64,000 nucleotides of DNA from Escherichia coli (GTDB lineage: Bacteria > Pseudomonadota > Gammaproteobacteria > Enterobacterales > Enterobacteriaceae): assembly GCF_044324875.1 (NCBI RefSeq), contig NZ_CP172185.1; one strand, 5' to 3'. Below the pieces are notes generated by a model. The model made no database searches and was not told the origin of the DNA. It worked only from the letters and a program-made list of their open reading frames with translations. The translations under genes and the position numbers were made by a program. This document shows, in pieces, positions 17,431 to 57,936 of this stretch. How positions within the stretch are numbered: the stretch's first letter is position 1; every line of letters starts with the position of its first letter.

Positions 17431-17968
17431 GTGATGGTGGTTGGGGAAGGATTATTCAGCGCTGCGCGCTTCACCCTTCGGGTCGTTGCCTGCGGCAACG
17501 CTCTCTCGCTGGCGCTCGAGTCGAACCTTGGTCGAAGCTTCTCATCCTTCCCCGCTTGGGCAGAATATTTAATTACGGATTCGTTTGAGAGTTCAGGGAC
17601 TTTTGAAAGTGATGGTGGTGGGGGAAGGATTACTCAGCGCTGCGCGCTTCGCCCTTCGGGTCGTTGCCTGCGGCAACGCTCTCTCGCTGGCGCTCGAGTC
17701 GAGCCTTGGTCGAAGCTTCTCATCCTTCCCCGCTTGGGCAGAATATTTAATTACGGATTCGTTTGAGAGTTCAGGGACTTTTGAAAGTGATGGTGGTGGG
17801 GGAAGGATTACTCAGCGCTGCGCGCTTCGCCCTTCGGGTCGTTGCCTGCGGCAACGCTCTCTCGCTGGCGCTCGAGTCGAGCCTTGGTCGAAGCTTCTCA
17901 TCCTTCCCCGCTTGGGCAGAATATTTAATTACGGATTCGTTTGAGAGTTCAGGGACTTTTGAAAGTGA
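17431..17968 (-). repeat. Three tandem ~178-bp repeats of the tyrT operon distal region (rtT/tpr region)
   Basis: Units beginning at 17431, 17609 and 17786, each starting with a copy of the 3'-terminal ~19 nt of tRNA-Tyr; near-identical units. Confidence 0.9.
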
Positions 17969-18053
<85 letters not shown>

Positions 18054-24793: not shown

Positions 24794-24808
24794 GGTAATG
24801 ACTCCAAC

Positions 24809-25312
24809 TTATTGATAGTGTTTTATGTTCAGATAATGCCCGATGACTTTGTCATGCAGCTCCACCGATTTTGAGAACGACAGCGACTTCCGTCCCAGCC
24901 GTGCCAGGTGCTGCCTCAGATTCAGGTTATGCCGCTCAATTCGCTGCGTATATCGCTTGCTGATTACGTGCAGCTTTCCCTTCAGGCGGGATTCATACAG
25001 TGGCCAGCCATCCGTCATCCATATCACCACGTCAAAGGGTGACAGCAGGCTCATAAGACGCCCCAGCGTCGCCATAGTGCGTTCACCGAATACGTGCGCA
25101 ACAACCGTCTTCCGGAGCCTGTCATACGCGTAAAACAGCCAGCGCTGGCGCGATTTAGCCCCGACATAGCCCCACTGTTCGTCCATTTCCGCGCAGACGA
25201 TGACGTCACTGCCCGGCTGTATGCGCGAGGTTACCGACTGCGGCCTGAGTTTTTTAAGTGACGTAAAATCGTGTTGAGGCCAACGCCCATAATGCGGGCA
25301 GTTGCCCGGCAT
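24809..25312 (-). CDS. insB: IS1 transposase InsB frame
   Basis: 167-aa ORF; A6C slippery site near 25246-25255 for InsAB' frameshift fusion. Confidence 0.9.
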
Positions 25313-25506
25313 CCAACGCCATTCATGGCCATATCAATGATTTTCTGGTGCGTACCGGGTTGAGAAGCGGTGTAAGTGAACTGCAGTTGCCATGTTTTAC
25401 GGCAGTGAGAGCAGAGATAGCGCTGATGTCCGGCGGTGCTTTTGCCGTTACGCACCACCCCGTCAGTAGCTGAACAGGAGGGACAGCTGATAGAAACAGA
25501 AGCCAC
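25231..25506 (-). CDS. insA: IS1 InsA (transposition inhibitor / N-terminal transposase part)
   Basis: 91-aa ORF with zinc-finger Cys pairs. Confidence 0.9.
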
Positions 25507-25561
25507 TGGAGCACCTCAAAAACACCATCATACACTAAATCAGTAAGTTGGCAGCATCACC

Positions 25562-39877: not shown

Positions 39878-40029
39878 GGGCACAACTCCTTGTTCGGGAA
39901 AGTTGTAAAGTACGTTATTTGAAAGGGCGAAGATCTGCAACGGAAAGATGATGACTTTGTTAAGACCATGCATAAAGTAAGGTCAATTACGCTAAAAATG
40001 ACATTTTCACTGATCCTGATCGTCTTGCC

Positions 40030-40060
40030 TTATTGAATATGATTGCTATTTGCATTTAAA
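40030..40060 (+). promoter_or_regulatory. Putative Fur box / tonB promoter
   Basis: ttgaatatgattgctatttgcatttaaaat resembles Fur iron-box repeats upstream of tonB. Confidence 0.4.
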
Positions 40061-40100
40061 ATCGAGGCCTGGTTTTTCTACTGAAATGATTATGACTTCA

Positions 40101-40826
40101 ATGACCCTTGATTTACCTCGCCGCTTCCCCTGGCCGACGTTACTTTCGGTCTGCATTCATGGTGCTGTTGTGGCGGGTCTGCTCTATACCTCGGTACATC
40201 AGGTTATTGAACTACCTGCGCCTGCGCAGCCAATTTCTGTCACGATGGTTGCGCCTGCGGATCTCGAACCGCCACAAGCCGTTCAGCCGCCACCGGAGCC
40301 GGTGGTAGAGCCAGAACCGGAACCTGAGCCGATCCCCGAACCGCCAAAAGAAGCACCGGTGGTCATTGAAAAGCCGAAGCCGAAGCCGAAACCTAAGCCA
40401 AAACCGAAGCCGGTGAAAAAGGTACAGGAGCAGCCAAAACGCGATGTCAAACCCGTAGAGTCGCGTCCGGCATCACCGTTTGAAAATACGGCACCCGCGC
40501 GCCCGACATCAAGTACGGCAACGGCTGCAACCAGCAAGCCGGTTACCAGTGTGGCTTCAGGACCACGCGCATTAAGCCGCAATCAGCCGCAGTATCCGGC
40601 ACGAGCACAGGCATTGCGCATTGAAGGGCAGGTTAAAGTTAAATTTGATGTCACGCCGGATGGTCGCGTGGATAACGTGCAAATCCTCTCAGCCAAGCCT
40701 GCGAACATGTTTGAGCGTGAGGTGAAAAATGCGATGCGCAGATGGCGTTATGAGCCGGGTAAGCCAGGCAGTGGGATTGTGGTGAATATCCTGTTTAAAA
40801 TTAACGGCACCACCGAAATTCAGTAA
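40101..40826 (+). CDS. tonB: TonB energy transducer
   Basis: [24 protein letters not shown] with (EP)n-(KP)n proline-rich spacer; 241 aa here. Confidence 0.95.
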
Positions 40827-40834
40827 GCAGAAAG

Positions 40835-40864
40835 TCAAAAGCCTCCGACCGGAGGCTTTTGATT
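40835..40864. terminator. Bidirectional terminator between tonB and yciA
   Basis: aaaagcctccg-acc-ggaggctttt hairpin with A/T runs on both sides. Confidence 0.8.
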
Positions 40865-40865
40865 A

Positions 40866-41264
40866 TTACTCAACAGGTAAGGCGCGAGGTTTTCCTTCAG
40901 GATCAACCGCGACATACTTAAATAATGCTTCTGTCGCTTTATAGCGTTGCCCGATGGGTTCAGACGCGACTTTTTTCACCCACACTTCAATATTAATGCT
41001 GACCGATGTCGTCCCTTTCTGGACACAGCGTGCATAGCAGCACACCACATCGCCGACCGCAACCGGCCGTAAGAAAGTCATTCCTTCAACCCGCACAGTC
41101 ACGACGCGACCGTGGGCAATTTCTTTCGCCAGAATAGCGCCGCCAATATCCATTTGTGACATTAACCAACCACCAAAGATGTCACCATTGGCATTGGTAT
41201 CGGCGGGCATGGCTAAAGTACGTAAAACAAGATCGCCCTGAGGGACGTTATGTGTTGTAGACAT
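40866..41264 (-). CDS. yciA: Acyl-CoA thioesterase YciA
   Basis: 132-aa ORF. Confidence 0.9.
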   Translation of the reverse strand: MSTTHNVPQGDLVLRTLAMPADTNANGDIFGGWLMSQMDIGGAILAKEIAHGRVVTVRVEGMTFLRPVAVGDVVCCYARCVQKGTTSVSINIEVWVKKVASEPIGQRYKATEALFKYVAVDPEGKPRALPVE

Positions 41265-41368
41265 GGTAAAACCGACTTAAAAGGAAAATCACAGGCGCGA
41301 TGCTACTATGATTTTCCTGAGGAGAACAGAGGAGATACAGCGCCAGCCCCGAAGGACTGGCAGTCTGG

Positions 41369-41908
41369 TTAGGATTTATCTTCCTGCGGCATGTGGCGGT
41401 AGATATAGATACCGCTTAACAATGTGAAGATTAAGGTAAGGGCGGTCAGGCCAAAGACTTTAAAGTTGACCCAAATATTTTGCGGCAGCCAGAATGCGAT
41501 GTAGATGTTTGCCAGACCGCAAAGGATAAAGAAAACAGCCCAGGCCAGATTCAGCTTCGACCATACCGGTTGCGGCAGCGTGAGTTCTTTACCCAGCATC
41601 CGCTGAATTAGCGGCTTTTTCATCACCCATTGGCTGACTAACAGGGCTCCCGCAAACAGAGCATAAATGACTGTAACCTTCCATTTAATAAACTCATCAT
41701 TGTGGAAGAACAGCGTCAAGCCACCGAAGACGACCACCAGAACAAAAGTGATCAGGGCCATCTTCTCAACCTTACGAAAGCGAACCCAGCTATATATAAG
41801 CACAATCGCCGTGGCGACGATCAGCGCCGCAGTAGCCGCATAGATGTCATAAATCTTGTAAAACGCGAAAAAGACAACCAGCGGTAAAAAATCAAGAAAC
41901 TGCTTCAT
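41369..41908 (-). CDS. yciB: Inner membrane protein YciB (intracellular septation protein A family)
   Basis: 179-aa membrane ORF. Confidence 0.9.
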
Positions 41909-41937
41909 TTTACGATTCCGTAATCAAATGCTTAAGG

Positions 41938-42681
41938 TTATTGGCGAATCAACATATACAGGCGGAACAGATAGATGAGCAGTACGGCTGAAATCAGGTT
42001 GCTCAAGGTGTTCGCCAGTACGGCACCAATTTCCGGGGTTAATGCGGCAAAAGAAGAGGCAAAAAGCAGCAACAGTGTCTTTGCCAGCAACCAGCTCAGT
42101 ACTGCGGGTGCCACCAGACGCATATTCGCCCAGGTCAGGCGCATGCTGCTTCGCATCGAGGCAAAAATGCCCATTTTGTCCTGTACCAACATCACCGGTG
42201 CCAGGGCCAATAAAATGGCCATGATAATTCCCGGAACGACCACCAGCATGATGCCAATCTGTACTAAAAGGGTAGTCAGAAAAATCAGAATAAATAACTT
42301 GGGCAATATCGGCGCACTGGCACCAATAGCTCGCAGCGCACTGACTCTCTGACCCGCAGACACCAGCTGGATAATTAATATTACGCCTCCGGCGAGAATG
42401 GCGTTACCGATTAATCCTGAAAAAGTGGACGCCGCTGAAGCCTGCAGCAAAATTTGTTGCTGTTCCGGTGACATATTCTGAACCAGGTCGAACAACCCAC
42501 TACTGCCGCTAACGGGCACGCCGTCATTGAGCTGCGCAAGCTGTGCATCACTGGGTGAGAAAACATGCCCTAACACCACTGTGATAAACGCACATAGCAA
42601 CGATACCAGCAGAATGGTCATAAATTGATTACGGAAGAAATTTCCGGTGTCACGGTATACGGACTGCGCCGTGATAGACAT
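41938..42681 (-). CDS. yciC: Inner membrane protein YciC
   Basis: 247-aa membrane ORF. Confidence 0.9.
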
Positions 42682-43037
42682 GCACTCTCCTTGAGTTTTA
42701 TGCAGGTGTTAATTAGCGGGCAATTGTACCCTGGTTAAGCCTCGGGTGGCAGCATCAGGTCTTGTATGGAAAAGCATATCTTTGTAAAGCGGAGGTAATT
42801 GCTGGCCTTCAGGCGTGGGCAAACCGCGGCAAGTGGCGAACGAGTTAATATTTGCGTAGCGAAAATATTTAAAAATTGATTTAAATCACATTAACCAGGA
42901 TTCTCAATGCAACTTCTAAATTAATCCAGATCAATAAATGGTGAATTATCATATGTAATGTGATCTATGTAGGATCATTTGTTACTCCAATGTAGGTATA
43001 TTCGTCACGTTTTTATAACCATAACGACGGAGCGGAT

Positions 43038-43676
43038 ATGAAAAAGTTAACAGTGGCGGCTTTGGCAGTAACAACTCTTCTCTCTGGCAGTGCCTATGCG
43101 CATGAAGCAGGCGAATTTTTTATGCGTGCAGGGTCTGCAACCGTACGTCCAACAGAAGGTGCTGGTGGTACGTTAGGAAGTCTGGGTGGATTCAGCGTGA
43201 CCAATAACACGCAACTGGGCCTGACGTTTACTTATATGGCGACCGATAACATTGGTGTGGAATTGCTGGCAGCGACGCCGTTCCGCCATAAAATCGGCAC
43301 CCGGGCGACCGGCGATATTGCAACCGTTCATCATCTGCCGCCAACACTGATGGCGCAGTGGTATTTTGGTGATGCCAGCAGCAAATTCCGTCCTTACGTT
43401 GGTGCAGGTATTAACTACACCACCTTCTTTGATAATGGATTTAACGATCATGGCAAAGAGGCGGGGCTTTCCGATCTCAGTCTGAAAGACTCCTGGGGAG
43501 CTGCCGGGCAGGTGGGGGTTGATTATCTGATTAACCGTGACTGGTTGGTTAACATGTCAGTCTGGTACATGGATATCGATACCACTGCCAATTATAAACT
43601 GGGCGGTGCACAGCAACACGATAGCGTACGCCTCGATCCGTGGGTGTTTATGTTCTCAGCAGGATATCGTTTTTAA
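43038..43676 (+). CDS. ompW: Outer membrane protein W
   Basis: 212-aa ORF with signal peptide, C-terminal aromatic residue. Confidence 0.95.
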   Translation: MKKLTVAALAVTTLLSGSAYAHEAGEFFMRAGSATVRPTEGAGGTLGSLGGFSVTNNTQLGLTFTYMATDNIGVELLAATPFRHKIGTRATGDIATVHHLPPTLMAQWYFGDASSKFRPYVGAGINYTTFFDNGFNDHGKEAGLSDLSLKDSWGAAGQVGVDYLINRDWLVNMSVWYMDIDTTANYKLGGAQQHDSVRLDPWVFMFSAGYRF

Positions 43677-43684
43677 TTCCGCAC

Positions 43685-43710
43685 AAAAATGACCCCGTAA
43701 TTACGGGGTC
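43685..43710. terminator. Terminator hairpin between ompW and yciE
   Basis: gaccccgtaattacggggtc hairpin, A-run upstream (U-run on minus strand). Confidence 0.55.
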
Positions 43711-43734
43711 AATAAGGACATGGTATAAAGGGTA

Positions 43735-44241
43735 TTATTTCTTCGCTTCCACGCCATCAGTTTCAGAGCGAATTAAGAATTTCTCAGTTGTTTGCGGAAT
43801 ATGCTGAATTAGCCAGTCGGCCATGTGCTTTTCCTCATTTAAAATCGCTTCGATAATCGGAATTGAGGCTGTATCACCGGCATTTTTTGCTGCTGCTAAG
43901 AGTGAGGTATAACAGGCGATTTCAAATTGCTCGAAGACATATCCGCTAATAGAGCCTTTGACTATTTCATCAGAAGGGAATATACCACCGATTGACTGTC
44001 CAAGCGCAGCCATTTTACTCATGGAATCTTTAATGACTGAACGTGAAATGTCATTACGATCAAGAATAGTTTCCAGTTGAACAATCTGGTTTTTGGTTTC
44101 ACTAAGATGTTGTTCAATACGAGCGCGTAGTTCAGGATAATTATCTATACGACTGGCCATGGATTCAAGCATAGATTCGGCTTGCTTTTCCATTGCGTGG
44201 GCGTCACGTAACCAGTCATGATAATGTTCAATACGATTCAT
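43735..44241 (-). CDS. yciE: Ferritin-like protein YciE
   Basis: 168-aa ORF. Confidence 0.9.
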   Translation of the reverse strand: MNRIEHYHDWLRDAHAMEKQAESMLESMASRIDNYPELRARIEQHLSETKNQIVQLETILDRNDISRSVIKDSMSKMAALGQSIGGIFPSDEIVKGSISGYVFEQFEIACYTSLLAAAKNAGDTASIPIIEAILNEEKHMADWLIQHIPQTTEKFLIRSETDGVEAKK

Positions 44242-44286
44242 GAAAATGTCCTCTTTATAAAATGACTAAAAGTTAAAGTTCATATT

Positions 44287-44787
44287 TCAGGCTTTATTTT
44301 CGGCTTTCTTATTTACGTTATTAAGGGCCAGATCAGTCAGTTTGATGTCTGTGGCCTTTTCTTCTTCCAAAGTTTCTTTCAGAAGCTTCGCTGCTTTACG
44401 GTAACCTAATTGTTCAGCCAGCGTCGCTAAGGTCCCGTAACTGGCGATCTCATAGTGCTCGACTTTCTGTGCAGCGGCAATTAGTGCGGCATCACGTACT
44501 TCGTTTTTCTCGGTGCTTTCGATGACCTCATTAGCTTCTTCAATGAGACCTTCCATTGCCACACATTTCATGCGCTTAATTTTCAGGTTCGATTCAGATT
44601 CCACAACTTGATCAATTCGTTCAATCTGTCCATGAGTTTCCTCGAGGTGCGCATGAAAAGCCTGACTTAATTTTTCATTTGATGTTGCTCTTGCGAGTTT
44701 TGCCAGTGCCCGGGTTAATTGTTTTTCTGCGCTGTAGGTATCTGAAAGCAGGTGAATAAATACATCTTCAATGGTCTTCATATTCAT
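44287..44787 (-). CDS. yciF: Ferritin-like stress protein YciF
   Basis: 166-aa ORF MNMKTIEDVF. Confidence 0.9.
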   Translation of the reverse strand: MNMKTIEDVFIHLLSDTYSAEKQLTRALAKLARATSNEKLSQAFHAHLEETHGQIERIDQVVESESNLKIKRMKCVAMEGLIEEANEVIESTEKNEVRDAALIAAAQKVEHYEIASYGTLATLAEQLGYRKAAKLLKETLEEEKATDIKLTDLALNNVNKKAENKA

Positions 44788-51984: not shown

Positions 51985-52013
51985 AAAAAAAAGCCCGCTC
52001 ATTAGGCGGGCTG
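51985..52013 (-). terminator. trp attenuator (3:4 terminator hairpin)
   Basis: Minus-strand AGCCCGCCTAATGAGCGGGCT followed by U8. Confidence 0.9.
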
Positions 52014-52054
52014 GGTATCTGATTGCTTTACGCATGGTGAATACACTGCCCGTT

Positions 52055-52099
52055 TCAGGAAGTGCGCCACCAACCTTTCAGTACGAAAATTGCTTTCAT
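52055..52099 (-). CDS. trpL: trp leader peptide (14 aa, tandem Trp codons)
   Basis: Hand-translated [14 protein letters not shown]; below ORF-track cutoff. Confidence 0.9.
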
Positions 52100-56913: not shown

Positions 56914-57936
56914 ATGATTAGATATAGTGGAATATTTCTATCGCTGTTAATGCTTTCAGGTTGTGCAACTGAAGCATTGAAAAACGAACAAGCTGAAACT
57001 GTTATTACTGCGGGTAACAAAGCAGTAGCGGCGAATGCAAGTTTCTTTAAACAATACTATGCTTCTCGTGAAAACTTCCTTGTTAATTTTTATGCGACTA
57101 ATCCGGATTGTGCACCTCGACCAGATTATGAGGTAGTTATTGAAAACAGTACCAGTGATGAGTCATTATGTCAGCAACCTGGAGATAAGCACAAAAAATC
57201 TCAAGAAGATCTTTTTATTACAAAGATAGTCGCTACTGAAAAAGAAAGATTGCTGGCTTCTATGGAAATCATTAGCAGTATGAGTTCTTATGTCGAACTT
57301 TTGAATGAGGATTTAGATGTTAAAGACAGCAAACAGTTCATATTGCTTAAACAAGCTCTGGATCACGCGAATAATGCGGGGGCACTTCTGGGCATCAATG
57401 ATGGTGGAACATTAACAAAATCTGCAGCAGCGGTTAAAGATTTAGTGGTTTATTTCAATGGGTTGTATAATACAAGGGTAAGCGCAGGGAATATAGGTAG
57501 TACGGTAAATAATCATTGGCAAAGAATAAAAAATGATCTAACTGATATACGAAACGATATCGCGACAAAAGGTAAACAAACTGGAAGAAATACCTTTGCG
57601 ACGGTACATAATAATCTCGTTTATTACAATGCCTCCTTAAAAAAAGGAGGAGGTAATGAATTTAAGACATTGAAGAGCAGACAAGAATTCCTGGCTGCGA
57701 TTATCAGTATTAATGAAACACGTCTTCGTGCAGCAGATCCAGCTATTCCAGCAATACAAGCACTGAACTCATTTCTTGACGAGGGGAATCACCTTAAGGA
57801 TTTATACACTAATAAAATACGCACAGCGGCTGAACAAAAAAGGCTAAATGAAATATTACGCGCACAGGTCATTAGTGGGTTAAAGGCGTCTGAGGGGCTG
57901 GCAAAACTACTTATTGCCAGCGGAATAATGTTATAG
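56914..57936 (+). CDS. Predicted lipoprotein of unknown function (340 aa) in an AT-rich insertion
   Basis: ORF with AGAGGTGG RBS; signal peptide MIRYSGIFLSLLMLSGC with lipobox LSGC and Ala at +2; codon usage visibly AT-rich compared with neighbours. Confidence 0.75.
   Translation: MIRYSGIFLSLLMLSGCATEALKNEQAETVITAGNKAVAANASFFKQYYASRENFLVNFYATNPDCAPRPDYEVVIENSTSDESLCQQPGDKHKKSQEDLFITKIVATEKERLLASMEIISSMSSYVELLNEDLDVKDSKQFILLKQALDHANNAGALLGINDGGTLTKSAAAVKDLVVYFNGLYNTRVSAGNIGSTVNNHWQRIKNDLTDIRNDIATKGKQTGRNTFATVHNNLVYYNASLKKGGGNEFKTLKSRQEFLAAIISINETRLRAADPAIPAIQALNSFLDEGNHLKDLYTNKIRTAAEQKRLNEILRAQVISGLKASEGLAKLLIASGIML

Follow-up and report, generated by a model that had tools for sequence, protein, structure and literature searches.

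The Lys-Pro (KP) repeat of TonB has been known since tonB was first sequenced. The spacer of the protein, which joins the membrane anchor to the C-terminal domain, has been portrayed as a stretched-out polyproline-II rod of sufficient length to bring the C-terminal domain to the outer membrane (PMC5413942, PMC9022066), and the S-H-L-S motif of the membrane anchor and its role have likewise been described (PMC12204202). TonB from which the Pro-rich motif had been deleted (Larsen, Wood & Postle, as cited in PMC9022066 and PMC10666116) is reported to transduce energy still. In addition, chimeras with domain II swapped between TonB and TolA have been made (PMC10666116), and these are reported in a later paper to be partially functional (PMC12204202). 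As regards natural variation of the repeat, our literature searches found no published description of a KP-number polymorphism in E. coli tonB; a paper on simple repeats in Haemophilus was rejected as a precedent, because it concerns TonB-dependent receptors rather than tonB. The 7-KP allele dealt with here is already known as a catalogued natural allele, i.e., it is ordinary variation.

In the 64,000-nucleotide (nt) stretch of E. coli DNA that was analyzed (hereafter, the window), tonB occupies positions 40101..40826 (+ strand) and, when translated from the ATG at 40101, encodes 241 amino acids (aa) plus a stop codon, which is the length that the original prediction had given. The order of the surrounding genes, kch-yciI upstream and yciA-yciB-yciC downstream, is the same as at the annotated locus of K-12 strain BW25113; the window tonB is a chromosomal gene in its usual setting, within an E. 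coli-type genome. Its product matched the NCBIfam equivalog NF008083 (TonB system transport protein TonB) over residues 1-241 with 535.2 bits (cut-off, 448), and the gene has exactly the sequence of the annotated tonB of RefSeq strain 7/2 (protein WP_001306569.1). More specifically, the protein has a single N-terminal membrane anchor (approximately residues 12-32; 40134..40196, +) carrying the S-H-L-S motif (S16, H20, L27, and S31; read directly and the same as in K-12), a central Pro-rich spacer in which an acidic Glu-Pro block is followed by a basic Lys-Pro block, and a C-terminal TonB domain (residues 152-241; 40554..40823, +; Pfam TonB_C, 71.9 bits; TIGR01352, 73.3 bits) of the kind that would be expected to bind the Ton box of outer-membrane transporters. 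The window protein also matched solved E. coli TonB structures across its full length, among them the C-terminal structures 1u07, 2gsk, and 1ihr and the chains 2gsk_B and 2grx_C, whose entries are TonB-transporter complexes according to the literature. The entry 2gsk is cited as that of TonB with BtuB (PMC5413942). Given its 99% identity to K-12 TonB, the protein probably acts, as TonB does, together with ExbB/ExbD and the proton-motive force. Neither exbB nor exbD was seen in the examined parts of the window; in K-12, these two genes are located elsewhere on the chromosome.

Upstream of tonB, a promoter-like site (TTGAAT, 18 nt, TAAAAT; 40033..40062, +) was picked up solely by a consensus scan, in which it reached 9 of 12 matches. 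A Fur-box-like match (12 of 19 positions) at 40035-40053 was not above background, a score that roughly one in four random windows of 150 nt attains. Between the convergent tonB and yciA genes lies a GC-rich palindromic hairpin with a 12-pair stem (40835..40862; no strand assigned, reported on the minus strand). Relative to K-12, it shows a single nucleotide change immediately beyond the stem. With an A-run on one side and a T-run on the other, the hairpin is terminator-like and would read as a terminator both ways.

The spacer comprises a (Glu-Pro)4 tract in its acidic half (residues 70-77 by translation; 40308..40331, +) and a (Lys-Pro)7 tract in its basic half (residues 91-104; 40371..40412, +), the latter encoded by three copies of AAGCCG and then by AAACCT, AAGCCA, AAACCG, and AAGCCG. 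Consistent with the earlier claim that seven consecutive Lys-Pro dipeptides follow the Glu-Pro tract, translation gave a single (KP)7 run, and Tandem Repeats Finder reported 7.0 copies of a period-6 unit at 40371-40412, along with a period of 12 in the same tract. The start of the tract had been placed correctly at 40371, but neither of the ends proposed for it proved accurate: extension to 40421 includes Val-Lys-Lys, and closure at 40410 drops the last 2 nt, the true end being 40412.

Alignment with K-12 bore out the remainder of that reading. The annotated tonB of BW25113 measures 720 nt and encodes 239 aa with 6 KP units (WP_001360141.1), just as the original prediction had stated, so that the KP counts of reference and window are not identical (6 versus 7), and the alignment contains one 6-nt gap, with AAGCCG repeated three times in the window and twice in K-12. 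The extra Lys-Pro is thus a 6-bp expansion. Aligning the DNA with that of K-12 and of a B2 strain places the expansion site at three perfect tandem AAGCCG units (40371..40388, +), where K-12 and most E. coli carry two. The indel amounts to one whole repeat unit (exactly 6 nt) within a perfect DNA tandem, and this third copy is the sole length difference between the two genes; it is in frame and falls inside the Pfam TonB_N 'polyproline region' (residues 33-159, 130 bits), i.e., in the periplasm-spanning spacer, as had been suggested. Apart from the KP tract, the window and K-12 genes differ at 11 nucleotides. The two encode 99% identical proteins, are the same gene with the same neighbors, and show no amino-acid difference beyond residue 135; at the protein level, they agree fully in the anchor motif (S16/H20/L27/S31), the (EP)4 tract, and all of the C-terminal domain.

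The two substitutions that had been tentatively noted, V-A-P versus V-T-P and R-P-T versus R-L-T, were both recovered by alignment with BW25113 and by direct reading. Codon 51 (40251..40253, +) is GCG (Ala) in the window and ACG (Thr) in K-12, and codon 135 (40503..40505, +) is CCG (Pro), the matching K-12 codon being CTG (Leu). Among 15 alleles compared, only the K-12 haplotype had Thr51, and it shared Leu135 with strain CFS3313 alone; the remaining alleles, the diverged B2 alleles included, carried Ala51 and Pro135. Thus, within this small sample (n = 15 alleles), K-12 represents the unusual state at both sites and the window the common one. A second in-frame indel lies just past the KP tract: the Gln109 codon CAG (40425-40427) is missing from B2-type tonB (for example in strains CCUG 73778, E2348/69, and L1PEag1), which reads VKKVEQP instead of VKKVQEQP. 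The identity range in which B2-type tonB alleles should lie contains approximately 567 genomes.

To place the allele in the species, a set of 5,426 complete E. coli genomes was searched with the 726-nt window gene, and 5,422 of these yielded tonB. At least 60 complete genomes carry a gene that is 100% identical to that of the window, encoding WP_001306569.1 (7/2, 50579417, WCHEC96200, and >55 others). Strains 50579417 and WCHEC96200 are published ST405 isolates, the latter reported as phylogroup D, and further carriers of the identical gene bear the labels 'strain 405' or O102:H6. The same protein is encoded in FEX669 (O150:H6) by a gene that differs at 6 silent sites. An exact look-up of the window protein in a collection of 15 billion protein sequences reported it absent, though RefSeq holds it as WP_001306569.1. 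In the laboratory strain XL1-Blue (NZ_CP132550.1), tonB matched two separate places, the better of which covers only nt 1-670; this suggests that the gene is disrupted or rearranged in that strain.

The 7-KP state itself was counted with a 100-nt probe over the tract, at an E-value limit that shuts out alleles with a 6-nt gap. By this measure, 117 of the 5,426 genomes (~2.2%) carry 7 KP units, 112 of them at ≥99% identity and 5 at 95-96%; two E2348/69 assemblies are among the matches listed for the latter group. A 44-nt probe that seeds only on the triple AAGCCG matched 114 genomes, of which 112 carry the triple unit; the genes of the other two, the low-identity matches OkiPb01692 and OkiPb01714, were fetched and have 6 KP units with an AAA>AAG change. 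Consistently, a long-flank probe with four AAGCCG copies gave 120 matches, i.e., the 117 genomes with 7 KP and a further 3 with 8 KP. Those three match at the full 8-unit length, and no complete E. coli genome was found to carry four AAGCCG copies with this probe. Approximately 97% of genomes keep 6 units.

Other lengths were found at both ends of the range, so that 5 KP is represented by at least three genomes, 6 KP by the majority, 7 KP by 117, and 8 KP by 3. A synthetic one-copy probe matched CAU16175 and PEC240 exactly and also led to L1PEag1; the fetched genes encode 5 KP in CAU16175 (237 aa) and 5 KP on a B2 background in L1PEag1 (236 aa). The fetched genes of LH13-b and RMDEC332 encode 8 KP (243 aa), and here the added DNA is a 12-bp duplication of AAGCCA-AAACCG, not of AAGCCG. 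These natural 5-, 7-, and 8-KP alleles (CAU16175, L1PEag1, E2348/69, LH13-b, and RMDEC332) resemble that of the window in having in-frame changes by whole units, hexamer or 12-mer, in the same tract. The (EP)4 count was constant in 15 of 15 alleles. We also considered whether tonB might be a phase-variable contingency locus and rejected this classification: there are 2-3 perfect units, the 6-bp unit keeps the frame, and all alleles examined encode full-length TonB (236-243 aa).

When the KP tract was removed and the remaining 684 aligned positions of the 15 alleles were compared, the length states did not follow the haplotypes, and 7, 5, and 8 KP each recurred on distinct tonB backgrounds. The K-12 haplotype carries 6 KP (K-12), 7 KP (CP52E and MS115-1), or 8 KP (LH13-b), with 0 other differences; likewise, the OkiPb01692-type haplotype carries 5 KP (CAU16175), 6 KP (OkiPb01692), or 8 KP (RMDEC332), and the B2 haplotype of CCUG 73778 carries 5 KP (L1PEag1) or 6 KP (CCUG 73778), again with 0 other differences in each. 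Seven units are found on the window/ST405 haplotype, on the B2-like E2348/69 haplotype, which has 19 differences from the window, and on three further haplotypes represented by FEX669, EC556, and CFS3313. The tonB genes of these last three strains look partly recombinant, sharing the 5' single-nucleotide polymorphisms (SNPs) of the window and having a different 3' half. The simplest reading of this distribution is that KP lengths reflect repeated in-frame gain and loss by slippage in both directions at an imperfect hexamer array of short length, with some recombination in addition.

The surroundings of the gene were compared with the closest complete genomes over positions 14797-64000, where divergence proved strongly mosaic (0-29 differences per kb). 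Relative to the ST405 strain 50579417, there were 0 differences from 39994 to 42608 (2.6 kb) and just one up to 44523; the flanks of this stretch showed 5-29 differences per kb, and outside 39994-44523 the window differs from the ST405 chromosome by 0.4-3%. The best matches among the 5,426 complete genomes reached only 99.2% (28-52 kb, a length of 24 kb) and 98.8% (44-60 kb, a length of 16 kb). Together with the diverged flanks, these values indicate that the window genome is not an ST405 strain, and its lineage, which may be that of a Shigella or of a rare E. coli, seems to be unrepresented among the complete genomes. An ST405-identical stretch of 2.6 kb amid diverged DNA implies that the tonB allele was inherited or was imported by homologous recombination. 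On sequence grounds, the 7-KP expansion is evidently not a fresh mutation in the window genome.

Several further features were noted in the window and in its comparison with 50579417. Between tdk and adhE, an insertion of ~770 bp (24794-25561) with IS1-like InsA (91 aa) and InsB (167 aa) open reading frames is absent from that place in 50579417, and, conversely, 50579417 has an IS200C transposase between sohB and yciN (L012:45971-46429) that is absent from the window. The tyrT locus (17435-18053) has three tandem RtT repeats and one tRNA-Tyr, as against five RtT repeats and two tRNA-Tyr in 50579417, so that this array of 178-bp repeats varies in copy number. The segment at 57129-57802, between the rluB side and the cobO side, gave no megablast match in 50579417, where two hypothetical genes occupy this place, and looks like a small variable island. 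The window also contains two copies of the rdlD antitoxin RNA of an ldr/rdl-type module (702-767 and 1237-1302) and the trp operon leader (51985-52078).

We consider it highly probable (approximately 0.93) that the chromosomal tonB gene of the window is a natural length variant that arose by slippage or unequal exchange, was inherited or imported here, sits in a weakly unstable tract, and is most likely near-neutral. On this reading, one copy was added to a perfect AAGCCG-AAGCCG tandem by replication slippage or unequal exchange, keeping the frame and lengthening TonB from 239 to 241 aa; the allele reached the window genome by descent or homologous recombination, base for base as it stands in many complete genomes, ST405 strains among them. 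Across E. coli, the KP tract behaves as a weakly unstable in-frame repeat of 5, 6, 7, or 8 units. The slippage polymorphism that the original prediction had proposed is supported by the third exact AAGCCG copy, by the recurrence of the +6-bp change on three or more plainly distinct tonB haplotypes, and by changes of -6 and +12 bp on others. That the extra hexamer might instead be a sequencing or assembly artefact has scarcely any probability left: short tandem repeats are prone to indel errors in general, but nothing specific to the window favors such an error, which would have had to add exactly one in-frame unit each time, and 7 KP recurs in 117 genomes. Sequencing error is excluded by the occurrence of the very same 726-nt gene in no fewer than 60 complete genomes that were sequenced and assembled independently, in many laboratories and on many platforms.

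A less remote alternative, though one that we still regard as unlikely, is that 7 KP originated once and reached the other haplotypes exclusively by homologous recombination in short conversion tracts, with no recurrent slippage. In its favor, the trp-tonB region is a plain mosaic, as the ST405-identical 2.6 kb within diverged flanks illustrates, and the genes of FEX669, EC556, and CFS3313, with the window's 5' SNPs joined to a different 3' half, look recombinant. The nearest sites that distinguish the K-12 and window haplotypes lie ~110 nt upstream and ~85 nt downstream of the KP tract, so that a short gene-conversion tract could in principle move a unit without a flanking SNP, which makes the count of independent slippage events uncertain. 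Against a single origin, the 7-KP form of the K-12 haplotype has 0 other differences over 684 nt and would require a conversion tract of less than ~240 nt; furthermore, the 5-KP contractions and the separate 12-bp duplication behind 8 KP, on several backgrounds, show that the tract mutates on its own. Selection on KP number, through envelope geometry or through escape from phages or colicins, with 7 KP being adaptive in ST405-like lineages, appears quite improbable. In its favor, a successful clinical lineage carries the allele throughout, length changes recur, and the spacer is thought to set the reach of TonB across the periplasm; however, ~97% of genomes remain at 6 units, and the variants are rare and scattered, as is expected for neutral or slightly deleterious slippage combined with clonal hitch-hiking. 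In addition, the whole Pro-rich motif is reported to be dispensable, and the tract, with only 2-3 perfect repeats, is far below true contingency loci and never turns the gene off by changing. Slightly more doubtful still is the narrower proposal that KP number serves as a selectable 'length dial' for the periplasmic reach of TonB or its passage through peptidoglycan, with 7 KP advantageous in ST405-like lineages; if it were true, the 7-KP form should measurably improve iron uptake, or else the defense against TonB-dependent phages or colicins, in these lineages.

Returning to the reading of a near-neutral natural length allele, its structural consequence would be small. The polyproline-II rise is ~0.31 nm per residue, so one more Lys-Pro corresponds to ~0.6 nm, which is what the extra dipeptide would add to the extended periplasm-spanning rod. 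The engineered TonB without the Pro-rich motif is altered in the length of this same spacer, by loss of the whole motif, whereas the window allele is natural and differs by +2 residues only. We infer that the 7-KP allele is most likely neutral or nearly so. In practice, K-12 residue numbers shift by +2 after position 90 in the 7-KP allele, and the KP tract, being homoplasic, is unsuitable on its own as a lineage marker. TonB length in E. coli is thus variable, with alleles of 236-243 aa, and the natural series of 5-8 units provides ready material for studying how spacer length relates to Ton-dependent transport.
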